Notes: generated from the letters alone by a model not told the origin. DNA of 32,000 nucleotides from Clostridiaceae bacterium (GCA_018432235.1 JAHDLO010000012.1:1461-33460), one strand, 5' to 3'; shown: positions 1,972 through 31,089, numbered from the stretch's first letter. A program made the numbers and translations.

Positions 1972-4900
1972 ATGAACTGGCAACATTTTCAAACTTATAA
2001 CGAGGCACCAACACGAGCTTTTGAATGTATGTGCAATCAATTGTTTGAATTGTGGTGCAAAAAAACATATCCTGACTCTTTAAAGGTCGTTACAATTGTA
2101 AATGGTGCTGGAGGAGATGGAGGAGTTGAATCCTTTGCAATAAAAAAAGATGATACAATTATCGGAATGCAAGCTAAGTGGTTTTCAAATAGTATTACCA
2201 CAGGCCAGTTCGCTCAAATTAGCAGTTCGATTAAAACTGCTCTTAGAGTAAGACCATTGATAAGACAATATATTGTATGTGTTCCTCGTGATTTATCATC
2301 AGATCGCATTGGTAGAGGAAAGAAGGTTATAGAAGATACTGAATTAAATCGTTGGCAACAGTTAAAAAATAAATTAGAAGATGATTATCCAGGATTGAAT
2401 ATTGAGTTATGGAATGAAACTCAACTTTTAACTAAATTGCAAGATAGTGATGCTACAGGGATATACCGATATTGGTTTGAAAAATCCGAGATATCAAAAG
2501 AGCTTATTGTGTACTCTTACGAGAAACAAAAAAGTGGATGGTTATCGCAGAAATATACTCCTTGTCTGCATATTCAAGGACAAATGCAAAAAAGCATTTT
2601 AAAATTCGTAGGAACATTAGATAATCGTCAAAGCAGTATAAGTACGCTGAGTGCTATGAGCCAGCAATGCAGCAAATTTTTGAAAGCGTGTGATGACTAT
2701 TTACAATTTGTTCAAGATCATTCATCGCAGGAGCAGTTAATACATGAAATTCAGAGAACTCAAGAGCAAGTAATTAAGTTATTAGGTGAGATAAAATGTA
2801 TTATAGATGCTTTAAATAATGACCAACAAGTTGCATCCTCAATTAACGAAAACAATTGGTATATTGATTTTGCTATGCTAATAGAGTTGTTAAAACAAAA
2901 CGAGCAATTAAGAAAAAATTACTTTCACATTAGCGAGATTAAAAAAACTGCCGAAGCACTTCAGGAAAATGAAATCCATACTATTATTTCGGATATTCGT
3001 TTTCAATTAGATAATAAAAAATATCTGATATTAGGTAATCCTGGTTCGGGAAAAACACATGGAATAGCTAACCTGGTGGAATCATTACTAAATGAAAATT
3101 TACATATCCCGATATTAATTCGTGCGAAAGATGTCAATCCAAATAGCAATTGGGCTGATATCTTAAAAAAATCTTTAGGGTTAGCTTCGGTTTGGAATGA
3201 AACAGAATTGTGGCAGGCTTTAGAAGCATTGTCGTATCGTGCAGAAGTTAATAATGTCTATACAGCAGACATTGTTGTAGCTAAAATCATTCCGAAGATA
3301 TTAATTTGCATTGATGGGGTGGATGAATCTAAACCATATGACTTATGGTATGATCGCCTTAGAGAGATAGAAGCAATATGTTACAAATATTCCAGGCTGA
3401 GGTTTTGTATTACAAGTCGACCATATGTATTTAGAGAATTGGCATATGATGATAGCTTATTAATTAATACATTAAGACTACCTTCTGATGGCGATGTTCC
3501 GGTAAACGAATTATTTCTAGAATATATTGAATATTTTCATATAAATATCGAAGGGTGCTCTTGGATTAAATGGAGCTTAAAGACTCCTCTTGCATTGCGT
3601 GTTTTTTGTGAGAATTATAGGCATAGAAGTATATACGGCGTAGAAAAATCTTCTGTTACTATTACTAATCTTTTATCGAAGAAGTTTCATATAATTGAAA
3701 AAGAATTTAACTCCAAATATGAAACGGGGTATGGAGATAGAGAGCTTATTGTGCAAAATTCATTATTAGCAATAGCCAGAAAGCTTCTAATAAATACAAC
3801 GGTGTATAGAAATGATTTAATTGATTCTCTGAAAGACGTTTCAGGGCTTATTACCGCTGCCAATGATTATCGAAGAGAACTTATTGATTTTATCGAAGAT
3901 TATGGAATACTGCAGAGCTATACAATAAATTCAGATACTATATTTGAGCCTCCAAAAACATATTATTCTATTGGCGTTCAGCCCTTTTTTGATTATATAC
4001 TGGCACTATTAATTACTAATCAAATACAAGATCCATCAGAGGTCACACTTACAGATACATTAGTAGACCACGAGGGTGCTCTGCAAATGGTATCTATTCT
4101 TCTTTTGGAAGATTATTGCTACTTGATAACTGAGAATAAAAGTTTCAGAGATAATTTAAGTAATAACGAATTATTTGATTTAGTTTGCTTTTCATTATCA
4201 AACGTATCACCAACCCCTACATCTAAATATATACCTTTGGTCAAAAGGATGATGAATTATAATTCGGACTGTTTAAAAAGTGTTGTGAATAAAATTGTTC
4301 TTCCGGTATCACGAATTGAGAATCATCCTCTTGGTGCACAGATGTTACATGAGTACCTTATGAGTTTTGAAACTGCGGGAAAACGTGACGTTATATGGTC
4401 TGTACCTAGCTATTTAAGGTATCCAGGAGATGCTCCTTGGAAATGTTACACAAAAATTGATTTAAACGACAAAAGATATAAATTATGTGGTGAGGACAAG
4501 CATAATAGTATTCCCTTAGTCTATGCATGGATGCTAACCACTGTTAATAATATTGAAAGAGTGAGTTATAGGCGAGAACTAATGAAATGGGCTTTTAGGC
4601 AACCTTTTGAATTTTATAAAATGTTCGAGCATACATGGTGCACTAACGATCCTCAGATGAAAGAAGATTTATTTTCAGTAGCAATGGGGACTGTATTTAT
4701 GCTTGAAAAAGGACATCCCTGTATTAAATTATTCAGTGATTGGATGATAAAAAATATTTTTGCTTCAGATAAAATTAGTATGCATTATAATTGTGCTATT
4801 CGATATTACAGCAGAGCTATTGTTGAACGGTCCTATGCATTTGGTAACATAAATGATGAGGATGTAAGTAAGAGCCGTCCACCATTTCATACAAGTGGAA

Positions 4901-6531
4901 CTATCCCTCTTAATCGTGAGGCTACTTCTGGTACCCGGATGGGTGGCTTTGGGCCAATTGATTATGATTTGGCAAGATATGTTCTGTGTGATCCTATGGA
5001 TAGAATGTTTTTCAGCCGCCACGGTAGTGATAAAACTGCTGAAGAGATTGACTATACATGGCATTTTTCTGAGAAAGAAATTGAAGATATATTGACTAAC
5101 GAAGAAATTTTTCTTAATGAGAAATGTAGAGAAAAATTGAGAGAGATTCAGCTTGCATACAAAAAGCAAAGGAGATTTTGGGATCATCTGGATGATTTGA
5201 TTGATGACGGTGAAGATACCACCACTCCAAATTCGAAATCGCCTGCTTACAAATACAATAAAGAAGCAGACAGCTTCTTGTTAGAACATGCGCGAATTAT
5301 GGAAATGGAATCACTTGAACCTAATCAATTTGTCCTATCAGCTGCATATGCTTACATTCTACTACAGGGATGGAATGAAGAAGAGTTCTACGGTTGTCCT
5401 AATGGAGGTAAACCTGGGGAAGTAATCGGTGTTGATATTGCAATTTTGCGCCAACACCATCCCGCAACTCACGGTTCCAAAAGTAGCATAATGACTTTTT
5501 GTGAGAAGTATACATGGTGCGCTCGCAATGAAATTTTAGGATATTTATCAGATCGGTTACCATTTAGAGATTTTGAGAGAGCGCCATCATTACTGAACGA
5601 TTATGGTTTACTTGATGATTTCCCAAATCCAGCGCAAGAATTATATCAAGAAAATCCAGATAGCATTATGGAAAAAACCTCTTGGTTTGTCCCAGAGGAA
5701 CTATCACCTTTAATTAACGAAAATGTGGGAGAAAATGCCATAAGATATTGGATAATAAATGCTCCTACTCCTAATTTTGAAAAATGGATTGATATTCGTG
5801 ATTTCAACCATGAAATTGTACAAGAAGAGAAAAAGAATTGGATACCATTATATAGTTTTAATTCTGTATCTAATACTTTGGGTGGAGAATCACTTATGTG
5901 GATTTCTTCAGCAATAATCACAAATGAGCATTTTAAATACTTAAAAAATGACATAATGAATCGAAAAGACTCCTTAGTTTATAATTTAAGCAATCCTGAG
6001 GATTTACATTCATCTACTGAGACTCAATGCTATATAACCCCTAAAGAGATATGCTGGATGAATTGGAAAAATGAGTGTTACAATAAAATCTATAATATTT
6101 CTATTGATGATGGCGATTTTGTGGAATATACAATTGATAAGACAGTTGAAGAGTGTACAGCTAATTATCCTGAATTTGGTGATGTATATTATAAACTACC
6201 TTCCCGAATTATACGAGAATTGCTGGGCATATGTGATGGGGATGGGTATAAGTACTGTAATGGAGAAAAACAGCTTGAAGCAATTAGGTTTGAAGCAGGA
6301 GAAAAGTGGCATGACTCACAATCATATTTATGTGTTAATCGAGAAAAACTGCTTTTGCAATTAGAGCATCTTAAATTACAGATTTTTTGGACTGCTAGAT
6401 TACTCAGACAAGCTACTTCAAAAGCGCTTGAGAAATATCCTAAACTGCGGAGTCGAAATGACAAATGCTGGTTAGTTTGGTTTGAAGATGGAGAGTTAAG
6501 AACTCTTCTTTTTTCAGAGCAGGTTGATTAA
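1972..6531 (+). CDS. Giant NACHT-type STAND NTPase (bacterial NLR-like/Avs-like) with an N-terminal Mrr-like PD-(D/E)xK nuclease-type domain and a C-terminal region of about 900 aa of unknown fold
   Basis: 1519-aa uninterrupted ORF with a GGGGAG RBS, beginning 21 nt after the toxin stop. Walker A is GNPGSGKTH (nt 3034-3060). Walker B is the NACHT style ILICIDGVDES (nt 3301-3333). The NACHT signature RFCITSRPYVF follows. The N-terminus reads FECMCNQLFELW...GDGGVESFAI...GMQAKWF, matching the Mrr_cat pattern FExL...DGGID...QcK. Confidence 0.8.
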   Translation: MNWQHFQTYNEAPTRAFECMCNQLFELWCKKTYPDSLKVVTIVNGAGGDGGVESFAIKKDDTIIGMQAKWFSNSITTGQFAQISSSIKTALRVRPLIRQYIVCVPRDLSSDRIGRGKKVIEDTELNRWQQLKNKLEDDYPGLNIELWNETQLLTKLQDSDATGIYRYWFEKSEISKELIVYSYEKQKSGWLSQKYTPCLHIQGQMQKSILKFVGTLDNRQSSISTLSAMSQQCSKFLKACDDYLQFVQDHSSQEQLIHEIQRTQEQVIKLLGEIKCIIDALNNDQQVASSINENNWYIDFAMLIELLKQNEQLRKNYFHISEIKKTAEALQENEIHTIISDIRFQLDNKKYLILGNPGSGKTHGIANLVESLLNENLHIPILIRAKDVNPNSNWADILKKSLGLASVWNETELWQALEALSYRAEVNNVYTADIVVAKIIPKILICIDGVDESKPYDLWYDRLREIEAICYKYSRLRFCITSRPYVFRELAYDDSLLINTLRLPSDGDVPVNELFLEYIEYFHINIEGCSWIKWSLKTPLALRVFCENYRHRSIYGVEKSSVTITNLLSKKFHIIEKEFNSKYETGYGDRELIVQNSLLAIARKLLINTTVYRNDLIDSLKDVSGLITAANDYRRELIDFIEDYGILQSYTINSDTIFEPPKTYYSIGVQPFFDYILALLITNQIQDPSEVTLTDTLVDHEGALQMVSILLLEDYCYLITENKSFRDNLSNNELFDLVCFSLSNVSPTPTSKYIPLVKRMMNYNSDCLKSVVNKIVLPVSRIENHPLGAQMLHEYLMSFETAGKRDVIWSVPSYLRYPGDAPWKCYTKIDLNDKRYKLCGEDKHNSIPLVYAWMLTTVNNIERVSYRRELMKWAFRQPFEFYKMFEHTWCTNDPQMKEDLFSVAMGTVFMLEKGHPCIKLFSDWMIKNIFASDKISMHYNCAIRYYSRAIVERSYAFGNINDEDVSKSRPPFHTSGTIPLNREATSGTRMGGFGPIDYDLARYVLCDPMDRMFFSRHGSDKTAEEIDYTWHFSEKEIEDILTNEEIFLNEKCREKLREIQLAYKKQRRFWDHLDDLIDDGEDTTTPNSKSPAYKYNKEADSFLLEHARIMEMESLEPNQFVLSAAYAYILLQGWNEEEFYGCPNGGKPGEVIGVDIAILRQHHPATHGSKSSIMTFCEKYTWCARNEILGYLSDRLPFRDFERAPSLLNDYGLLDDFPNPAQELYQENPDSIMEKTSWFVPEELSPLINENVGENAIRYWIINAPTPNFEKWIDIRDFNHEIVQEEKKNWIPLYSFNSVSNTLGGESLMWISSAIITNEHFKYLKNDIMNRKDSLVYNLSNPEDLHSSTETQCYITPKEICWMNWKNECYNKIYNISIDDGDFVEYTIDKTVEECTANYPEFGDVYYKLPSRIIRELLGICDGDGYKYCNGEKQLEAIRFEAGEKWHDSQSYLCVNREKLLLQLEHLKLQIFWTARLLRQATSKALEKYPKLRSRNDKCWLVWFEDGELRTLLFSEQVD

Positions 6532-22260: not shown

Positions 22261-22493
22261 TTGTACCCGGCGGGGCATTATGACTAATAGCAAAAGAATA
22301 GAAGAACACGGTTGTATATTCCGTTCAACGCAAATGCTTCAGTTGTGTTTTGGCAAATTGGGTTTTGAAAAAGTGAGAATCGAGCCAAAACTACCTTATC
22401 TTGTAATAGTTAATATATACAGAATAAACTTACCATGCCATGGATTATCTGTGCAGACTCCACAAAAATTATTAAAAAAAGAATTTTTCTTAT

Positions 22494-22553
22494 ATGAGAT
22501 ACTTCTCATTTTTAACATAATATGTTATAATGCAAACGTGAGAGGTATCTCAT
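22494..22553 (+). promoter_or_regulatory. Promoter flanked by two inverted 16-bp operator-like sites (candidate TetR operators)
   Basis: Site 1 is ATGAGATACTTCTCAT (22494-22509). Site 2 is GTGAGAGGTATCTCAT (22538-22553). The reverse complement of site 2 matches site 1 at 14 of 16 positions. Between them lies an extended -10, TGTTATAAT (22523-22531), with a -35-like TTCTCA (22503-22508). Confidence 0.55.
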
Positions 22554-22576
22554 ATTATTTGATTGGAGGTGTGATT

Positions 22577-23170
22577 ATGCCAAAGGAAACATTTTACAAT
22601 CTGAAGGACGAAAAAAAGCAGCGCATATTTGAGGCAGCAGTTCAAGAATTTGCATCGCGCAAGTTCAGCGAGGCGTCCCTTAATCAAATTGTCAAGGTTG
22701 CGCAGATACCATGGGGCAGCTTCTATCAATATTTTGATGGTAAAGAAGACCTTTACCTCTATGTTATAAAGGAAATATCAAGAGATAAATGGGATGCTCT
22801 GGAACAAGCTGGTGCAGAGGATATGGATGAGGATTTTTTTGACACAATTCGGGGAAAAATCGGAGCGCTGTTTGAGTTGGGAAAACGTAATGCAGACTAT
22901 GCACAGATTGTCCTGCTCCAAGAGATGGATGACAATGAATTTATCAGGAAGCTACGTAGAGGTTCTACCAAACGCTGGAAAGACATTATTGAACGCGATA
23001 AGGAGCGTAGTCTAATCAAACCGGAAGTCGATGCTGATGTAATGATAGATATGTTTTACAATTTTGTTCTGCTAAATTATTACCGGGTCGGTCTAGATGA
23101 TGAAGAGAAATATTTGGACACGCTGGATAAAGCCATCAAAATAATGCGGGATGGAGTAAGTGCAAATTAA
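22577..23170 (+). CDS. TetR/AcrR family transcriptional regulator
   Basis: I moved the start to the ATG at 22577 after GGAGGTG. The N-terminal HTH is IFEAAVQEFASRKFSEASLNQIVKVAQIPWGSFYQYFDGKEDLY. The upstream part of track ORF 22280.. is AT-rich promoter DNA. Confidence 0.85.
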   Translation: MPKETFYNLKDEKKQRIFEAAVQEFASRKFSEASLNQIVKVAQIPWGSFYQYFDGKEDLYLYVIKEISRDKWDALEQAGAEDMDEDFFDTIRGKIGALFELGKRNADYAQIVLLQEMDDNEFIRKLRRGSTKRWKDIIERDKERSLIKPEVDADVMIDMFYNFVLLNYYRVGLDDEEKYLDTLDKAIKIMRDGVSAN

Positions 23171-23214
23171 TAATTATCTAATAGAGCAATCAAACTTTAA
23201 GGAGGGATAAAAAA

Positions 23215-25758
23215 GTGGGAAAATATATTATTAACCTAAAAGACAATGAGGCATGTAAACTGTCCATTTCAGGTGGGAAAGGCGCAAACCTTTCCAAACT
23301 GCACAGTATCCCCGGTATTCCTGTACCGGATGGCTTTGTTGTTAGTGCCCAGGGTTATAGCGATTTGGTCTTGTCCATGCCGGAAGTAAAAAGCTTACTT
23401 TCCCGGTTGAGATCGATTACCGTAGATCAAACAGAAGCCGTCTCACAATTAAGTAAACAAATAAGAGAGACAATCGAAAAAATCAGTTTTCCCTTAGAGT
23501 TCACAGAAGAAATTAACAAGGTACTATCAAAATATGGCAATTCATTCCCATATGCCGTGCGCTCCAGCGCAACTGCAGAGGATTTACCTGGAGCTTCCTT
23601 TGCCGGGCAGCAAGATACATTCTTGAATGTCAAGGGGCTTAAAAACATTTGCGAGGCAATTGTTAAGTGTTGGGCGTCTCTGTTCAACGAACGGGCTGTT
23701 GCTTACCGTATTAAAAACGGTTTTCCCCATGACAAGGTTACAATCGCTGTGGTTGTACAAAAAATGGTTAATTCTGAAGTATCTGGCGTACTGTTCACAG
23801 CCGATCCGATGACCTCCGACCGTTTTACAACCGTTATTGAAGCGGTCAGGGGTTTAGGAGAGGATTTGGTATCCGGGCGCAAAAACCCCTTTGAGTGGAA
23901 GCTGCGGCACGGCAAGCTGCAAAAAACCAGCGACGGCGAAGGGGAAATGCCCCTTGAAGAAGCACGTCTTTTGGAATTGTCACAGATTGGTAAAAGAATA
24001 GAAAAGGCTTTCGACTGCGAGCAGGATATTGAATGGTGTTATACCAAGGACGGTTTTTCTATCGTACAGGCACGGCCCATCACTACCTTGTTCCCCCTGC
24101 CGCAAAGTCCTGATGGCTATAAGCATTGTGCTATATCTGCCGGTCACCTGCAAATGATGACGGACATTATTCTGCCATTAGGAATTTCTGTGTTACAAAA
24201 ATCTGCATTTTTTCCGGTAATGGAATTGGGTGGCCGGATGTATATGGACGTGACCCATGACCTTGGCACAAAAAAAGGGCGGCGAAAAGTTTTATCGGAA
24301 GCAAAAATAAAAGATCCTCTTATGTATTCCACATTAGCAAAAATCATGGAAAGAAAGGAATATATAAAAAATATTCCCAGTGGTCCCAGTGGGTTTCTGG
24401 CCATTGAGGGAATAGGCAAAATATTGGTAACAGCGGTCCGTACCTATTTTCGCAACAACGAAGCAGACATTGACGCTTATGTGAACAGGCAAAAAGCGGA
24501 AATAGAAGCCATGCGTAGCAAATTGGAACGTCTTTCCGGAACAAAAGCCTTGCAATTTATTATGGACGATCAGGAGCGTTTTCGCAAAGTTCTATATGAC
24601 CCTTCGGGAACGGGTGCAACTGTTATGACGATTATGGTTGCGAGACTTTTGGATAAATCGGTGGAAAAGCTCACCGGCGAAAAGACAATTACCAACCGTC
24701 TGGCAAAATCAGTAAGGCACAATTCTTCATCAGAAATGGGGTTGAAACTTTGTGAGGTGTCAGATATCGTACGAAATTATCCTCAGGTTGTGGCTTATCT
24801 TGAAGAAGCCGGCGAGGATTTGTCACTTGAGGCACTCAGAAAGCTGGAGGGAGGCAATCAGGTAGCCAACAAGTTTGCGGAGTTTCTGAAGGAATACGGT
24901 ATGCATTGCGCCGGGGAATTAGATATAACTCGTGAACGTTTCCGCGAACGTCCAGGCATACTTTGTACTTCCCTGCTGAATAATATTAAAAATTTGCCTG
25001 CCGGACACGCGGAAATTTCCTTTGAACAGGGTAAGCAGGAAGCTGAACAATTAGCGAAAGAGCTTGTGGCAAAAATGGAGGCCGAGCATGGTAGACTCAA
25101 AGCAAGGAAGCTAAAAAAGAGAATTGAAAAATACCGAAATTTTGTGGGTGTACGGGAATATACAAAATATTTTTGGATGGCTCACTATGATGTTTATAAG
25201 CAAGCCATTATGCGAGAAGTGCACAACCTTGTCGAGGCTGGTGTACTGAAGAAATCGGAGGATGCCAATTACCTGTCAATGGATGAACTTTTAGATGCGG
25301 TAAAAAGCGGGTGTGTAAATCAGAATTTGATTGAGGAACGTAAGGACGCTTACCGTTCTTATGAAACACTTACACCGCCTCGTATCATTTTCTCCGATGG
25401 TGAAGTACCGCCTGTATCTTATTCAGTGAATATTCCGAGCGGTGCGCTTGCAGGACTTGCAGTATCAACGGGTATCGTGGAGGGGCGCGCTCGTGTGGTG
25501 GAAAACCTTGAGGATGCTCATATCGAAAAGGGGGATATTCTCGTTACCACATTCACAGATCCCAGTTGGACACCGATATTCGTATCTCTTTCAGGACTTG
25601 TTACTGAGGTTGGGGGCATGATGTCGCATGGCGCAGTAATTACCCGCGAATATGGCCTGCCTGCGGTAGTTGGCGTGGTGAACGCTACCAGGCTGATTAA
25701 AGATGGACAAAGAATTCGTATAAATGGAACAGAAGGATATATAGAAATTTTGGAATAG
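23215..25758 (+). CDS. rph: PEP-synthase-like antibiotic phosphotransferase, rifampin phosphotransferase (RPH) family
   Basis: 847 aa, with a GTG start after AAGGAGGG. The N-terminal ATP-grasp block is AVRSSATAEDLPGASFAGQQDTFLNV...CWASLFNERAVAYR...VSGVLFTADP...DIEWC...IVQARPITT. The C-terminal swivel His domain is TDPSWTPIFVSLSGLVTEVGGMMSHGAVITREYGLPAVVGV. The architecture and these blocks match RPH enzymes as I recall them. Confidence 0.7.
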   Translation: MGKYIINLKDNEACKLSISGGKGANLSKLHSIPGIPVPDGFVVSAQGYSDLVLSMPEVKSLLSRLRSITVDQTEAVSQLSKQIRETIEKISFPLEFTEEINKVLSKYGNSFPYAVRSSATAEDLPGASFAGQQDTFLNVKGLKNICEAIVKCWASLFNERAVAYRIKNGFPHDKVTIAVVVQKMVNSEVSGVLFTADPMTSDRFTTVIEAVRGLGEDLVSGRKNPFEWKLRHGKLQKTSDGEGEMPLEEARLLELSQIGKRIEKAFDCEQDIEWCYTKDGFSIVQARPITTLFPLPQSPDGYKHCAISAGHLQMMTDIILPLGISVLQKSAFFPVMELGGRMYMDVTHDLGTKKGRRKVLSEAKIKDPLMYSTLAKIMERKEYIKNIPSGPSGFLAIEGIGKILVTAVRTYFRNNEADIDAYVNRQKAEIEAMRSKLERLSGTKALQFIMDDQERFRKVLYDPSGTGATVMTIMVARLLDKSVEKLTGEKTITNRLAKSVRHNSSSEMGLKLCEVSDIVRNYPQVVAYLEEAGEDLSLEALRKLEGGNQVANKFAEFLKEYGMHCAGELDITRERFRERPGILCTSLLNNIKNLPAGHAEISFEQGKQEAEQLAKELVAKMEAEHGRLKARKLKKRIEKYRNFVGVREYTKYFWMAHYDVYKQAIMREVHNLVEAGVLKKSEDANYLSMDELLDAVKSGCVNQNLIEERKDAYRSYETLTPPRIIFSDGEVPPVSYSVNIPSGALAGLAVSTGIVEGRARVVENLEDAHIEKGDILVTTFTDPSWTPIFVSLSGLVTEVGGMMSHGAVITREYGLPAVVGVVNATRLIKDGQRIRINGTEGYIEILE

Positions 25759-25865
25759 TAAGAGTGATATTTTTTTGTTAATGAATGAATAAAGGATGAC
25801 AAACTATTAAGCGACCCATTGAAGGTCGCTTTCTCAGACATAAAAAGAATTGAGGTGTTTCGATT

Positions 25866-27122
25866 GTGGAAAAAGATAAGAAAGCTACAAATACAAATCT
25901 AATATTGTTATTGCTTGGAAGGATGGTTTCCGATACTGGAACGAGCCTCCAAATGGTGATTATCCCTCTGTATATCATTGATGTCGGGGGCTCAGCAGCT
26001 ACTGTGGGACTGTTTTCATTTCTGGCTTTAATGCCGGCGCTTCTCGTATATCCCCTTGCCGGAGTGATAGGTGATAGGTTGAACCGAAAGACAATCATGG
26101 TGGCAACAGATTTCGCCAGTGCCGGGATAATACTTGGATTAGCTTTTGCCTCCTATTTAGGTAAAATGAGTCTTGTTTTACTTTTGACGGTTCAGGTTAT
26201 AGTATCTTTGCTGAACGGTTTGTTTGATCCGGCCACAAAGGGAATGCTTCCCCAGTTGGTAGAACAGGATAAACTGACACGGGCCAATTCTGCTGTAGCA
26301 TCCCTTAGAACATTGTCATCTCTTCTCGGACCTGTCATCGGGGCTGCTTTGTATGTAAAATTGGGGATTACGGTACTATTTTTTATTAATGGTATATCAT
26401 TTTTGTTGTCGGCAACTAGTGAGATGCTCATAAAGTATAAGCATTCCAAGCGAGAAGTGGGCAAAGGTATACAGGGAATAGTAGCAGATTTGTCTGAAGG
26501 CCTCAAGTTCATCTTGGATAATAAGTTGATTCGTAAACTATGTGTTTTTTTCTTGATAATATATGCCTTGATTCAGCCTATATTTACCGTAGTGTTACCT
26601 CTGTTTTTTAGAACCCGGCTTAATTACTCTGATACACAGTACGGCTATTTACAAATGATAATAATATTGGGTGCACTCCTTGGAAGTATTCTGGTGGGAC
26701 TGTTGTTTGGTAAAGAGAAAAAGGTGATTAAATCGCTTATGATCGGCTGTAATCTGCTCATGGGTATGATGCTGGCATTTTCGGTGTTATTGTTCCCATC
26801 CAGCTTATCTCAGCTGGGAAAAGACACGCTTTTGTATTTTTCCTTGCTGTCGGGAGTTCTTTGTCTGTTAAGTGTTTCTATCATGTTCATCCATGTTCCG
26901 GTACAGGCACTTATACAAAGGAAAACGCCGAACGAATATATGTCTCGAATATTTTCAATAGTTGGAATAATTACTAAGGGTGGAATTCCTCTCGGTGCAT
27001 TAATGTATGGATTTATCCTCAACACCATTGAAATGCACTGGACGATATTTTCGTCTACATTACTGATGATGTTGGTTTCAGTTGTGTTTTTAATCTCATT
27101 ATCAAAAGCACATGATATTTAA
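25866..27122 (+). CDS. MFS transporter (12-TM efflux type)
   Basis: 418 aa, with a GTG start 8 nt after GAGGTG. It is hydrophobic throughout. The motif GVIGDRLNRK lies in the loop 2-3 position (MFS motif A-like). Confidence 0.8.
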   Translation: MEKDKKATNTNLILLLLGRMVSDTGTSLQMVIIPLYIIDVGGSAATVGLFSFLALMPALLVYPLAGVIGDRLNRKTIMVATDFASAGIILGLAFASYLGKMSLVLLLTVQVIVSLLNGLFDPATKGMLPQLVEQDKLTRANSAVASLRTLSSLLGPVIGAALYVKLGITVLFFINGISFLLSATSEMLIKYKHSKREVGKGIQGIVADLSEGLKFILDNKLIRKLCVFFLIIYALIQPIFTVVLPLFFRTRLNYSDTQYGYLQMIIILGALLGSILVGLLFGKEKKVIKSLMIGCNLLMGMMLAFSVLLFPSSLSQLGKDTLLYFSLLSGVLCLLSVSIMFIHVPVQALIQRKTPNEYMSRIFSIVGIITKGGIPLGALMYGFILNTIEMHWTIFSSTLLMMLVSVVFLISLSKAHDI

Positions 27123-27182
27123 ACATAGATCCTTTTTAGTTTTTCACTAATAGTTGTGAATAATATAAAAATTGAATTATCA

Positions 27183-27268
27183 GAGTTAAGGGCAAACCTG
27201 TCGAAAGGTAGGGACGCAAAGCCAAAGGGTCTAATGTGCTCGATGCACTATGACAGCCGGTTGCCGCA
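27183..27268 (+). promoter_or_regulatory. Cyclic-di-GMP-I (GEMM-I) riboswitch aptamer
   Basis: The core is AAGGGCAAACCUGUCGAAAGGUAGGGACGCAAAGCC. The P2 hairpin CCUGUC-GAAA-GGUAGG is capped by a GNRA loop. It is followed by ...GACAGCCGGUUGCCG. GGCAA (27191-95) pairs with UUGCC (27261-65). This matches the conserved GEMM-I core (compare Vc2: GGGCAAACC....GAAA....GGGACGCAAAGCC ... GGGGUUACCG). Confidence 0.75.
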
Positions 27269-27283
27269 TTACTATGTGACTAA

Positions 27284-27317
27284 GACCTGCCCTTTTTTGC
27301 GGCAGGTTTTTCATTTT
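27284..27317 (+). terminator. Intrinsic terminator forming the riboswitch expression platform
   Basis: Stem ACCTGCC (27285-91) / GGCAGGT (27301-07), followed by TTTTTCATTTT. The right arm GCGGCA (27299-304) can alternatively pair with TGCCGC (27262-67) at the aptamer 3' end. Confidence 0.6.
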
Positions 27318-27362
27318 GTATGGGATAGCATATGGCTGATGCGATATTGGAGGTGAAACAAC

Positions 27363-27695
27363 ATGCATAATGATAATATGGACAAGCTGGGGAAAATTAT
27401 TAAAACTGCTCGGAAAGAAAATAACCTCACTCGAGAGCAGCTAGCTGAGAAAATTAATATTACACCTCGCTATCTCATGGCTATTGAGAACGAAAATAAG
27501 AAGCCGAGCTATCATGTTCTTTTTAATCTTATACGCGAATTAGGCATATCCGCAAATATGATCTTTTTTTCTGAAAAACTACATGCAGATACAAAAACTG
27601 AGCTGCTTATTCAATTATTATATATGTGCGATGAGAAGGAACTCAAGGTTATAACTGCAACAATAAAAGCTTTGTTGGACAATAAAAAAGAATGA
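27363..27695 (+). CDS. XRE-family helix-turn-helix transcriptional regulator
   Basis: 110 aa with a GGAGGTG RBS. The HTH_3 pattern is LTREQLAEKINITPRYLMAIENENKKPSYHVLFNLIRELGIS. Confidence 0.85.
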   Translation: MHNDNMDKLGKIIKTARKENNLTREQLAEKINITPRYLMAIENENKKPSYHVLFNLIRELGISANMIFFSEKLHADTKTELLIQLLYMCDEKELKVITATIKALLDNKKE

Positions 27696-28076
27696 ATACA
27701 TAGAAGCGTGTTATTCAAAGAAGTCTTATAGCAAAACAGTAGAAAATGAAGAGGCATATTGTAAGTAAGAAATAGCTTTTTAATGTAACGGGCTGTGCCG
27801 TTAAATAAAAAAGGTGAGTTTGTGGGACTTCCTGTGCTTGAGTATAGCCCCCTTATACTCACAAGTTTGGAGGGTATTTTTATGCTTATTCAGTATGTCA
27901 TAATTCGACAACCGCTATTGAATAGCGGCCAGGCGTGATAAAGCAGACATTGTTTTATACTTTATAGCTAATGTTGAACTATTAAAAAAAGCCTATTTCG
28001 GGCAAGGGGCAAATATGACCAACAAGTAGAACTACCAGACCCTAAAAATAGGAAATGTAAAAACATAAGTGTTGTA

Positions 28077-28113
28077 AAAGCTCATTTGGATTGTACCCAA
28101 GTGAGCTTTTTTT
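28077..28113 (+). terminator. Rho-independent terminator
   Basis: Stem AGCTCATTTGG (28079-89) / CCAAGTGAGCT (28097-107), 11 bp with one G.U pair and a 7-nt loop, followed by a T6 run. Confidence 0.6.
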
Positions 28114-28197
28114 GTCGCATAAAGCGGAATTGCGTCGGTTGTCGTTCTCCGCCCTCTGTTTTGGTTTTCCAAAGAAATCAAAACGGAGGTTAGGAAA

Positions 28198-28620
28198 ATG
28201 AAAAGGATCAATTTGCGGGATTATTACCCGTTTTATAAATCTGATTTTTTTATTGAAGTAGCTGATGAAATCGCACTATCCCTAAAACGCTTTGAATTGG
28301 ACGAGAGTGCCTATCGACTACGAACATACAGGCACAAAGCGTACTACTCTCTTGACCGGAACGACGGTATAGAAAATGAGATTATATTTATATCATTATC
28401 TCCCCAGGAAATTTACGAAAGAAGAATTACAAATAATGAGCTTTATGCTGCAATCAACAGCCTGCCGGAAAAACAGGCAAAGCGGATTTACGCATATTTC
28501 TTTTTAGGTATGAGTAAAGCGGATATTGCAAAAGCGGAAGGTGTTCGAGAAAGTGCAGTCAGAGAATCCATTGAGCGTGGACTTAAAAATATTGAAAAAT
28601 TTCTAAAAAACTTTTTATAA
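28198..28620 (+). CDS. Small sigma-70 region-4-like regulator (ICE/transposon sigma-like factor)
   Basis: 140 aa with a GGAGG RBS. The C-terminus LPEKQAKRIYAYFFLGMSKADIAKAEGVRESAVRESIERGLKNI is a region 4.2-type HTH. Confidence 0.7.
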   Translation: MKRINLRDYYPFYKSDFFIEVADEIALSLKRFELDESAYRLRTYRHKAYYSLDRNDGIENEIIFISLSPQEIYERRITNNELYAAINSLPEKQAKRIYAYFFLGMSKADIAKAEGVRESAVRESIERGLKNIEKFLKNFL

Positions 28621-29154
28621 CACCCTGCGGTTTTGCCTTAAAAATGAACTGGTTATTAGAGGGACAACTTCTACCCCCCTCAATTGAACCTTGACAATTA
28701 AATAATTGTTTTCCGGTACGTTCCCCGTATGTCCTGAAAGGGAAAGCCAGATTGCAGGTACGCCAAGACCACCTGTTCGATATCAATCACAATATAAGTG
28801 ATGTATTCACGCTAATGCAAATCTGAAAGGAAGGTGCGAGCGATCAATACCCGTGCAATAAATAGATGATGGTTACGCTTAAGGCGATGATACATGCGAG
28901 GGATAATGATACTTCCGTCCAGCCACAGCCCCGCGAAGCGGGAACACGCAATGGGGGCGGCTCGGTGAGAACCACGGAGAGGTGTAATTCCTATGAGGAT
29001 GGTTAACCGCCATCTGCCGGATAAACATAATGAAAATAAAACCAAAACAGAAATGTAGGTTAGGGGTGCGCTTTAATATATGACTATTTAAAAAGGCGTA
29101 CCCTTGATACTGCAAGAATATAGAAATTAGTGATTGTGAGGATGGAGGGGTTTT

Positions 29155-29301
29155 ATGAGAGATAAATTGATTCGATATAGCATGCAAATTGCTATGTTGA
29201 GGCAATTATTGACCTTGGCTTTGATCACTGAGAAGGAATTTGCATTAATCAAAAATAAGCTTATGCAGGACTATGGTGTAGTTTCAGACTTGACATCTTA
29301 A
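29155..29301 (+). CDS. 48-aa SHOCT-like small protein immediately upstream of the recombinase (not in the ORF track)
   Basis: ATG at 29155 after GGATGGAGGGG. The translation is MRDKLIRYSMQIAMLRQLLTLALITEKEFALIKNKLMQDYGVVSDLTS. The L..glITekEF..iK.kL pattern resembles SHOCT. Confidence 0.45.
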   Translation: MRDKLIRYSMQIAMLRQLLTLALITEKEFALIKNKLMQDYGVVSDLTS

Positions 29302-29373
29302 TTTACACATTTGTGAAATATTCAATAGATTATTATACTGATTCCGTAATAATAAAAGCTGAAAGGGGGATTT

Positions 29374-31089
29374 ATGATGCATGAAGTTGAAGTGATTAGA
29401 GCAAATAGGAAGATATCTGAACGTACAGCAGGGAAGCTGACGGATATATTGCGTGTTGCTCCTTATGCCAGAGTTAGTACGGATTCAGAGGAACAATTAA
29501 GCAGTTATAAATCACAGGTTGCTTATTATACGGACTTGGTGGAAAAGCGCAAGGATTGGGTTTTGGTAGACATTTATGCTGATGAAGCCATAACAGGCAC
29601 ACAGGTGACAAAGCGTGAAAATTTCCAGCGGATGATTAATGATTGTATGGACGGAAAAATCGATATGATTATTACAAAATCCATATCAAGATTTGCAAGA
29701 AATACCCTGGATACTCTGAAATATGTCCGTATGTTAAAGGAAAGAAACATTGCCGTATTTTTTGAGGATGAGAACATCAATACGATGACAATGGACGGCG
29801 AATTGCTGCTTGTCATACTAAGCTCTGTCGCACAGCAGGAGGTTGAGAACATTTCCGCCAATGTGAAAAAAGGCTTGAAGATGAAAATGAAGCGCGGTGA
29901 ACTGGTTGGATTCCAAAGCTGTTTGGGGTATGATTATGATCCGACTGATAAGAGTATTTCTATAAATGAAGCAGAAGCAAATGTTGTTAGATACATATTC
30001 GACCGGTATGTTGACGGTGCCGGTGCTTATGTTATTGCAAAGGAGTTAACCAGCCTTGGATATAAAACCAGGTATGGAAATACGCAATGGCATGACACGA
30101 CTGTTTTAGGAATAATTAAAAATGAAAAATACAAAGGGGATGTTTTGCAGGGCAAAACATTTACTGTTGATCCTATATCAAAAAGAAGACTGGATAACTA
30201 TGGTGAGGAGGATCAATTCTACGTAAAAAATCATCACGAGCCTATTGTCAGTGAAGAAGTTTTTGAAAAAGCACAGGCAATTTTAAGCAGGAGAGGAATT
30301 AATCGCCGCGGTGTTGAAAAGGGAAAGCGTGAAAAATACAGCAGAAAATTTGCTTTTAGCAGCAAGCTGGAGTGTGCTTTTTGCGGTGGAAATTTATCGC
30401 GTCGGAACTGGCATAGCGGCACTGTACATGAAAAAGTCATCTGGCAGTGTGTAGCTGCTACGAAAAAGGGCAAAAAATATTGTCCGAACAGTAAAGCAAT
30501 TGAAGAAAAAATTCTTGAGGATGCTTTTGTTGAATCGTACAAGCTGTTGTGCGATAATAATTCTGATGTGCTGGATGAACTTGTTAAGAGGATGGAAGCT
30601 GTTTTGAAAAGCAATGATTTCCAAAAGAGGCTTGTAAAAGTGGAAAATGAAATTCACGCCGTTGAACAGAAGCGAAACCGGCTGATTGACCTTCACCTGG
30701 AGGAAAAGATAGATAAAGCTGCTTATGAAAAGAAGTACGAAGAGTTTGAAATGATTTTGGATGACCTTCTGAGTGAAAAGGAGCAATTGGAGCAGTCTTC
30801 ACAAGAAGAAATTGACCTTGGAAAACGGATCGAGCATTTCCGGAAAGTGCTTGAGAAGAATGAAGTTTTAACGACTTTCGACCGATGTGTCTTTGAAAGC
30901 ATTGTTGAGAAGGTTATTATCGGAGAAGTAGATAAAGATGGAAAGCCTAACCCATATAAGCTTACTTTTGTTTATAAGACAGGATTTTATAATGCTGTGC
31001 AGAGCAAAATGCATAAGCAGTTTAAAAAAAAGAGACGGCAAAATGATGTGGTAGATTTGCCTTCCTATTCATCGGCCGACACATGTTGA
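29374..31089 (+). CDS. Large serine recombinase (integrase of the element)
   Basis: 571 aa. The resolvase catalytic domain has YARVSTDSEEQ (nucleophile Ser) and ITKSISRFARN. It also has a recombinase domain, the zinc ribbon CAFCGGNL...WQC...KYCPN, and a C-terminal coiled coil. Confidence 0.9.
   Translation: MMHEVEVIRANRKISERTAGKLTDILRVAPYARVSTDSEEQLSSYKSQVAYYTDLVEKRKDWVLVDIYADEAITGTQVTKRENFQRMINDCMDGKIDMIITKSISRFARNTLDTLKYVRMLKERNIAVFFEDENINTMTMDGELLLVILSSVAQQEVENISANVKKGLKMKMKRGELVGFQSCLGYDYDPTDKSISINEAEANVVRYIFDRYVDGAGAYVIAKELTSLGYKTRYGNTQWHDTTVLGIIKNEKYKGDVLQGKTFTVDPISKRRLDNYGEEDQFYVKNHHEPIVSEEVFEKAQAILSRRGINRRGVEKGKREKYSRKFAFSSKLECAFCGGNLSRRNWHSGTVHEKVIWQCVAATKKGKKYCPNSKAIEEKILEDAFVESYKLLCDNNSDVLDELVKRMEAVLKSNDFQKRLVKVENEIHAVEQKRNRLIDLHLEEKIDKAAYEKKYEEFEMILDDLLSEKEQLEQSSQEEIDLGKRIEHFRKVLEKNEVLTTFDRCVFESIVEKVIIGEVDKDGKPNPYKLTFVYKTGFYNAVQSKMHKQFKKKRRQNDVVDLPSYSSADTC

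Follow-up and report, generated by a model that had tools for sequence, protein, structure and literature searches.

Genetic organization of the locus

All long ORFs of the window (the whole 32,000-nt stretch of DNA that was analysed) lie on the plus strand, and their gene content is that of a conjugative element. The conjugation-side genes encode Toprim/DUF3991, a 1519-aa STAND NTPase, a MobA/VirD2 relaxase, DUF3801, ArdC, a T4SS coupling protein (T4CP), VirB4, DUF6075 and RadC; relaxase, T4CP and VirB4 are situated upstream of the riboswitch described here. Cargo follows the conjugation genes and precedes the riboswitch: a TetR regulator, a PEP-utilising enzyme of 847 aa and an MFS transporter. 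Four metagenome assemblies (L089–L092) contain almost identical copies of this part of the element, and the L089 copy of the 847-aa protein carries an Rph_4th domain; the cargo enzyme is rifampicin-phosphotransferase-like. The switch is located at the boundary between the cargo and a regulatory/recombination module, with the following features:

27154–27180, plus strand: AT-rich conserved stretch (..TTGTGA..AATTGAATTAT), recognized by similarity to relatives
27181–27268, plus strand: c-di-GMP-I (GEMM-I) aptamer, RF01051, full length
27265–27278, plus strand: small hairpin of the aptamer 3' tail (CGCA) and the linker (UGUG); 83% of cells pair, two of four pairs with compensatory changes
27282–27317, plus strand: intrinsic terminator T1 (−15.0 kcal/mol when folded alone, z = −4.66; none of 200 shuffles as stable)
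27363–27695, plus strand: XRE-family HTH regulator, 110 aa (Pfam HTH_19, 4.7e-13; HTH_3, 4.9e-12)
27857–28197, plus strand: non-coding leader of the sigma-like gene, 72–80% identity across elements
28076–28115, plus strand: second intrinsic terminator T2 (−18.6 kcal/mol, z = −4.95)
28198–28620, plus strand: sigma-70 region-4-like regulator, 140 aa (Pfam Sigma70_r4_2, 1.3e-9)
28903–28996, plus strand: pemK RNA motif RF02913 (71.9 bits; gathering score 34.8)
29155–29301, plus strand: SHOCT_2 small protein, 48 aa (PF20612, 2.4e-6)
29374–31089, plus strand: large serine recombinase, 571 aa, at the end of the element (Pfam Resolvase, Recombinase, Zn_ribbon_recom)

Pfam assignments and gene order agree with the original prediction, which had placed the switch and its XRE gene upstream of a sigma-like regulator and the serine recombinase. 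The Tn916-type succession of an XRE-like HTH protein, a sigma-70 region-4-like protein and a terminal recombinase is present, the recombinase being a large serine enzyme and not Xis/Int, and the sigma-like gene matches orf7 of Tn916 in position. The 140-aa sigma-like protein of the window and its 149-aa counterpart in the related element L085 give no significant BLASTP match to each other; we rejected homology between them and regard them as positional analogues only.

XRE and the sigma-like gene are separated by 500 nt of non-coding DNA. The leader within this stretch (∼340 nt) is better conserved than the recombinases, which are only 37% identical between the window and L085. It contains a conserved small ORF (27882–27938, MLIQYVIIRQPLLNSGQA), a hairpin CCGCUAU/AUAGCGG at 27912–27928 and another hairpin able to sequester a GGAGG sequence. 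T2 can pair in each of the 13 aligned elements, and both of its arms show sequence changes. Because T2 separates XRE from the sigma-like gene, transcripts that pass T1 would not automatically reach the recombinase, and effects on excision may be indirect. Further downstream, the pemK RNA has the same position in L002, L003, L081, L085, L093, L095, L106 and L124, and the SHOCT_2 gene is syntenic in relatives. Annotated phage and plasmid collections do not contain the module; the plasmid matches are unrelated GEMM-I aptamers and an HTH fragment.

Aptamer and terminator

Rfam cmscan returns two above-threshold matches in the window, the pemK RNA and c-di-GMP-I (RF01051). The latter scores 82.9 bits, far over the gathering score of 35, and spans model positions 1–87 of 87 (E = 3.9e-15), which confirms the GEMM-I aptamer originally claimed at 27183–27268 and extends it slightly at the 5' end. 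The core motifs quoted in support of that claim, GGCAAACC, GGGACGCAAAGCC and AGCCGGUUGCCG, are all present, and the first hairpin is capped by a GNRA tetraloop (GAAA, 27203–27206). Residues G27191, A27218 and CC27264–65 align with conserved positions of the RF01051 model, and G27191 is the unpaired position just 5' of a G-C pair. From the numbering map, we take G27191 to be the equivalent of Vc2 G20, A27218 that of A47, and C27264/27265 the C92 region. A47 contacts the ligand in Vc2, as do G20 and C92 (PMC6140456 for the latter two).

Adenine at the G20 position is the mark of GEMM-Ib aptamers and is found in L106 (aptamer at 4014–4103), L124 and other relatives. The window has a guanine (G27191), and by this mark its aptamer is of the c-di-GMP type, not GEMM-Ib.

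T1 has the sequence AAGACCUGCCC-UUUUUU-GCGGCAGGUUU, followed by the U-run UUCAUUUU. Its hairpin starts 14 nt 3' of the aptamer. The left arm, ACCUGCC(C) at 27285–27292, pairs with a right arm, G-GGCAGGU, formed by 27299 and 27301–27307 with C27300 bulged, and the U-run occupies 27307–27317. The intrinsic terminator originally called at 27284–27317 is thus both strong and conserved. A simple consensus terminator scan with a loop limit of 8 missed T1, presumably because its 9-nt loop exceeds that limit.

Conservation was judged from an alignment of 33 distinct aptamer-plus-platform sequences, for which RNAalifold predicts both the terminator and the helices of the aptamer, with compensatory changes in 12 of the 27 predicted pairs. 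Both aptamer hairpins are backed by covariation: pairs of P2 and P3 covary, compensatory column pairs include 30/43 and 33/40, and column pair 30/43 is CG in 17 sequences and UA in 14. In the T1 helix, 98.3% of cells pair, and four of nine pairs show compensatory changes. Changes on both sides are found in six pairs of the tested structure, a number reached by none of 500 shuffles. One relative, L138, has an unrelated hairpin and U-run at the place of T1, indicating that termination itself, and not a particular sequence, is conserved. Taken together, sequence and covariation make it almost certain that 27181–27317 is a functional c-di-GMP-I riboswitch consisting of aptamer and T1.

Alternative helices

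In the full leader, the fold with aptamer and terminator is 6–10 kcal/mol more stable than any terminator-free fold. The terminator fold is thermodynamically dominant, and any switching must therefore be kinetic; the folding calculations also allow that T1 may terminate constitutively.

The original prediction proposed that the right arm of the terminator pairs alternatively with the 3' strand of the aptamer. These strands are indeed complementary: the tail UGCCGCA (27262–27268) can form 7 bp with UGCGGCA of the right arm (27298–27304), and 88% of cells in the relatives are pairable. Covariation in this helix is, however, no greater than in shuffled controls. The helix is made of nucleotides fixed by the aptamer and by T1, and we retain it as a possible pairing. 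The small hairpin at 27265–27278 also uses the aptamer tail and is a candidate competitor of the closing helix.

As the anti-terminator, folding favours a different pair of strands, the 5' core strand of the aptamer and the left arm of T1, over the 3' tail and the right arm. AAGGGCA (27188–27194) of the 5' core is complementary to UGCCCUU (27288–27294) of the left-arm region. In folds of transcripts that end just short of the right arm, the left arm is paired with the 5' core strand in 22 of 33 relatives, with a mean probability of 0.6–0.7; in the remaining truncated transcripts, it is mostly paired with another aptamer segment. This helix is built of invariant nucleotides, which places it beyond the reach of covariation, and it is lost in relatives with A at the G20 position. 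Both the G20 equivalent and the basal G-C pair of the first hairpin fall within the 5' core strand.

We also considered a strand swap between P2 and T1, since P2 (CCUGYC/GRCAGG) resembles T1 (CCUGCC/GGCAGG). This was rejected, because changes in P2 are not mirrored in T1 and the resemblance is missing from L093.

The XRE gene and its transcription

XRE is the first gene 3' of the switch. Its ATG lies 45 nt from T1, and its Shine-Dalgarno sequence, GGAGG, is at 27349–27353. With a gap of only 45 nt, we judged it unlikely that XRE has a promoter in this interval, and the best −10-like match there (TGCGATATT, 27340–27348) would start the mRNA 3' of the Shine-Dalgarno sequence. As far as the sequence can tell, XRE most likely has no room for its own promoter.

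The promoter scan found no promoter-like site on the plus strand between 26800 and 29002. A sigma-70-like promoter upstream of the aptamer was likewise not found by the scan on this strand, and inspection by eye gave only weak matches in the window. The conserved AT-rich stretch at 27154–27180 is a possible weak promoter or −10 region. Some relatives have TTGAAG and AATAAT separated by 17/18 nt just upstream of the aptamer, a better match than those of the window.

Conservation of the switch in related elements

The XRE protein has hundreds of homologues. We gathered loci from genomes, from contigs encoding particular XRE homologues and from metagenomes, and scanned them with Rfam as well as a covariance model derived from eight aptamers that Rfam had confirmed. 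The aptamer-terminator unit is kept in more than 40 related elements and always faces the module of leader, sigma-like gene, pemK RNA and recombinase. The carriers are anaerobic Bacillota, mostly from digester, bioreactor and fermentation metagenomes. With both models, an aptamer was found to adjoin XRE in every sampled homologue of ∼65–73% identity. Among sampled loci with XRE proteins of ∼45–58% identity, an XRE-adjacent aptamer was found in L159 alone. In L006, L007 and L043, the aptamer lies some kilobases from XRE.

The relative orientation of switch and XRE is variable. The co-directional layout of the window, with the switch directly 5' of XRE on the same strand, occurs only in the closest relatives, whose XRE is at least 71% identical: L001, L002 (Petroclostridium sp. 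X23, the closest cultured carrier that we found), L003 (Anaerovirgula multivorans, decayed), L089–92, L135 and L154. In a convergent layout, the aptamer is on the strand opposite XRE, 50–270 nt past the stop codon, and points into the 3' end of XRE; this is found in all sampled homologues of ∼65–73% identity, namely in L004, L081–88, L093–94 (Desulfofarcimen acetoxidans DSM 771) and L095–100. In a third layout (L006 and L133), leader-like sequence comes after the switch, and XRE is encoded on the opposite strand behind the switch. In L120, the switch is upstream of XRE on the other strand, and there is no leader match. Among 38 metagenome loci with XRE of at least 60% identity, 30 are convergent and one is co-directional; the switch is elsewhere in two, the contig is too short in three, and two are without a switch. 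The window belongs to a minority clade with co-directional XRE. The original designation of XRE as the controlled gene is right for this clade, where XRE is directly downstream, but does not carry over to most relatives, in which XRE is inverted, or to some others, in which it is displaced.

In blastn alignments of 26901–29400 of the window with L085 and L081, the matches to switch plus T1, leader and pemK RNA are in unchanged order on one strand, and XRE alone matches on the other. The homology of XRE to the convergent elements L081, L085 and L004 is on the opposite strand and, with L081, starts 18 nt before the ATG. The alignments indicate that an XRE cassette is inverted between clades. A phase-variable invertible cassette was considered and rejected, the sole flanking inverted repeat being 11 nt long and AT-rich (27310–27320/27740–27750); the inversion looks evolutionary, separating clades.

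Similarity between elements starts ∼25 nt upstream of the aptamer, and the cargo beyond this point differs. The order that remains constant is cargo, switch with T1, XRE in either orientation, leader, sigma-like ORF, pemK RNA, SHOCT and recombinase, with XRE missing from its place between switch and module in some relatives. Since XRE is rearranged and the order of switch and module is constant, the switch is conserved relative to the module and not relative to XRE. The switch unit is also carried by L095–L097, with a module of Sigma70_r4_2, HTH_16, HTH_17 and a tyrosine integrase, a gene order that we take to be that of orf7-orf8-xis-int in Tn916.

Proposed mechanism

We propose that the riboswitch is a c-di-GMP OFF switch that gates transcription into the regulatory/recombination module, with XRE as the first gene here; for the mechanism as a whole, our confidence is somewhat better than even. 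Control would be exerted at the level of transcription, during RNA synthesis. Without ligand, AAGGGCA of the 5' core would pair with UGCCCUU of the T1 left-arm region, and the polymerase would read on. With c-di-GMP, the 5' core strand would be held in the binding pocket, T1 would form and transcription would stop. The location of the G20 equivalent and of the G-C pair in this strand is the basis for the direction of the switch: ligand binding should withdraw the strand and free the left arm for T1. We infer the OFF logic from these folding models, and it is in line with the finding that most class I c-di-GMP riboswitches of Clostridium difficile are OFF switches (PMC6200980).

In the window, the read-through RNA would be the XRE mRNA, because no promoter fits the 45-nt gap and none was found by the scan. 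Past XRE, the RNA would enter the conserved leader, where T2 would act as a second checkpoint before the sigma-like gene, the pemK RNA, SHOCT and the serine recombinase. The switch of most relatives would read antisense across the inverted XRE and yield an antisense XRE RNA. The conserved role would then be to link the level of c-di-GMP to whether transcription enters the module governing excision and transfer. If XRE is a repressor in both layouts and the switch is OFF, XRE would be lowered in the convergent elements when c-di-GMP is low, and in the clade of the window when it is high. It is a speculation that the inversion of XRE could in this way flip the sign of the response to the second messenger.

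The sign of the switch itself could be the opposite, with c-di-GMP preventing T1 and turning expression on, for example as activation in the biofilm state. One class I riboswitch of C. difficile, Cdi-1-1, is associated with increased expression (PMC6200980), and the aptamer 3' tail of the window can pair with the right arm as well as with the linker, so that there are more alternative helices than a simple OFF design needs. We nevertheless consider an ON switch improbable. Such designs normally have a terminator that overlaps the aptamer, whereas T1 is self-contained, lies 14 nt past the aptamer and shares no strand with it, and free aptamer strands can only compete with T1. It also seems unlikely that the switch controls the XRE protein only, and that XRE regulates the cargo or an immunity function and not excision or transfer. 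In favour of this reading, XRE is the sole ORF between T1 and the strong T2, and it adjoins the cargo genes for TetR, the rifampicin-phosphotransferase-like enzyme and the MFS transporter. However, the cargo varies among relatives, while switch, XRE, leader, sigma-like gene and recombinase stay linked; moreover, the switch is antisense to XRE in most relatives and directly precedes leader-like sequence in L006 and L133.

The thermodynamic dominance of T1 would also suit a short terminated RNA (∼135 nt) that acts as an sRNA or c-di-GMP sponge, or that is an inert relic, with no control in cis, and several class I riboswitches of C. difficile have no detectable downstream transcript in RNA-seq (PMC6200980). 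Two of that organism's riboswitches, Cdi1_4 and Cdi1_5, were once called non-functional but later showed c-di-GMP-dependent read-through (PMC7699646). Aptamer and terminator are both under structural selection here, and the orientation towards the module is retained through the rearrangements of XRE, making this the least probable of the explanations considered. We conclude that the switch most likely gates transcription into the regulatory/recombination module, with XRE as the first gene in the window.

More tentatively, and with doubt outweighing confidence, the element may belong to a lineage of Tn916/Tn1549-like elements in anaerobic Bacillota in which a GEMM-I riboswitch serves as the entry checkpoint for excision and transfer, at the place of the tet(M) attenuator. 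The different aptamer types of this lineage (c-di-GMP; A at G20, maybe cGAMP-bispecific; an orphan GGC variant, as in L095 at 6404–6489) could sense different cyclic dinucleotides, and the inversion of XRE, from antisense silencing of a repressor to sense co-expression, may reverse the sign of the response.

Beyond Tn916 and ICEBs1, little is understood about how conjugative elements of Gram-positive anaerobes come to excise and transfer. Here, a well-characterized ligand sensor is wired into the regulatory module of many elements that carry resistance-type cargo, and the level of c-di-GMP probably helps to decide when the mobile DNA becomes active. If true, horizontal transfer would be coupled to the c-di-GMP state that governs motile versus biofilm life. 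The two orientations of XRE are a natural experiment on antisense versus sense control, and the variant aptamers of sister elements provide a genetic context for variants with unknown or uncertain ligands.

Comparison with known systems

The RNA itself is a typical c-di-GMP-I riboswitch, its terminator platform is of the standard kind, and examples of the class on mobile elements are already known. In its build, it resembles Cdi-1-3 (Cd1) upstream of C. difficile flgB, where a GEMM-I aptamer is followed by an intrinsic terminator and c-di-GMP causes premature termination (PMC6200980). Both are from Clostridia hosts, but Cdi-1-3 belongs to a chromosomal flagellar operon and has been shown to be an OFF switch, whereas the switch of the window faces the module of a mobile element and its OFF behaviour is predicted.

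Cdi1_4 and Cdi1_5 are c-di-GMP-I riboswitches on mobile elements, namely two prophages of C. difficile, phiCD630-1 and phiCD630-2. Read-through there yields the type I antitoxins RCd11 and RCd12 in their long form, an antisense RNA that becomes less abundant at high c-di-GMP (PMC7699646; PMC3649979). Antisense read-through parallels the convergent layout of the relatives, but the layout of the window is sense, and the prophage riboswitches have toxin-antitoxin targets and no cascade of XRE, sigma-like regulator and recombinase.

In the model proposed for Tn916, read-through via tet(M) makes antisense RNA to orf9, the gene of an XRE-like repressor, and this de-represses the sigma-like orf7 as well as xis and int (PMC7288454). 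A conditional terminator upstream that gates the regulatory module, and the order of XRE-like protein, sigma-like regulator and recombinase, are common to Tn916 and the window. The convergent relatives match the proposed orf9 layout; where Tn916 has the ribosome-mediated tet(M) attenuator, they have a cyclic-dinucleotide riboswitch. The window differs further from Tn916 in its serine recombinase, pemK RNA and SHOCT protein, and its XRE is co-directional with the incoming transcript, not antisense to it.

GEMM-Ib aptamers, which bind 3',3'-cGAMP or are bispecific, have the same fold and carry A at G20 (PMC6140456), as does a subgroup of the related ICE-linked aptamers; the aptamer of the window differs in having G.

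A search of the open-access literature found no conjugative element described as having a cyclic-dinucleotide riboswitch in its regulatory module, consistent with the earlier suggestion that this mode of control is undescribed. What would be new is Tn916-type read-through control with a riboswitch as the sensor, in a regulatory context that is conserved in more than 40 elements. A link between c-di-GMP signalling and integrative conjugative elements also exists in the SXT/R391 elements, which encode diguanylate cyclases; those elements make c-di-GMP, whereas the element described here would sense it.

Aptamer variants of the related elements

The c-di-GMP-I riboswitch varies among related loci, and a subgroup of the ICE-linked aptamers has UUAAUAGCAAAC in place of UUAAGGGCAAAC, with A at the G20 position (Vc2 numbering). 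We list two of these loci, L106 and L124, together with a second variant from locus L095:

L106 4014-4103, minus strand, aptamer with A at the G20 position
L124 4015-4104, minus strand, aptamer with A at the G20 position
L095 6404-6489, minus strand, c-di-GMP-I-GGC aptamer (RF03167, 65.8 bits; gathering score, 59)

The same subgroup includes L109-L112, L116, L123, L128, L129, L131 and L159, all on the minus strand. A at G20 is the signature of GEMM-Ib riboswitches, which are cGAMP-binding or bispecific, and the L106/L124 subgroup has it in common with them. Despite this substitution, the L106 and L124 aptamers score 75-78 bits on RF01051. For L095, and likewise for L096 and L097, the top-scoring family is the orphan variant c-di-GMP-I-GGC. 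The L095 aptamer occupies the position of the aptamer in the other elements, and the module of this element comprises a Sigma70_r4_2 protein, HTH_16, HTH_17 and a tyrosine integrase.

Architecture of the module and its cargo

The following features of the window, all on the plus strand, lie outside the riboswitch:

1972-6531, 1519-aa STAND-type NTPase (NPHP3_N; weak nSTAND3 match)
22280-27122, cargo block of TetR regulator, 847-aa PEP-utilising enzyme and MFS transporter
27857-28197, non-coding leader of the sigma-like gene (72-80% conserved)
27882-27938, conserved 18-aa ORF in the leader
28076-28115, strong intrinsic terminator in the leader (-18.6 kcal/mol)
28903-28996, pemK RNA motif (RF02913, 71.9 bits)

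The leader is better conserved than the flanking proteins and also contains hairpins; it has no Rfam match, and it looks attenuator-like. The pemK RNA motif follows the sigma-like ORF and precedes the genes for SHOCT_2 and the serine recombinase, a position that is the same in many related elements. No pemK gene lies 3' of the motif in the window, unlike in locus L009, where it is followed by a 126-aa ORF (366-746) whose own sequence reads as that of a putative PemK/MazF-like protein.

Since the 847-aa enzyme of the near-identical copy L089 contains an Rph_4th domain, we regard this enzyme as rifampicin-phosphotransferase-like and as likely antibiotic-resistance cargo. The STAND-type NTPase gene is also situated within the conjugative element and is possibly a defence or accessory gene.

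Rearranged, decayed and displaced copies

Relative to the window's clade, most related elements have the XRE cassette, and only this cassette, in the opposite orientation (window 27345-27693 versus 5012-5330 and 3531-3877 in relatives L085 and L081, respectively). A look for inverted repeats on either side of the cassette yielded none that convinces, the best being 11 nt.

Some copies of the element are decayed. In L004 (563-2198), the XRE gene is truncated and adjoins a putative transposase gene (406-aa ORF). In L003 (5001-5261 and 6930-7715), XRE and recombinase are both broken, and the aptamer and its terminator are still intact.

XRE-homologue fragments also occur in MAGs labelled Enterobacterales, Thermoplasmatales archaeon or Bacteroidales (L001, L015, L025 and L023). 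These most likely reflect mis-binning, wide transfer being the less probable explanation. The L001 fragment carries an aptamer besides the XRE homologue.
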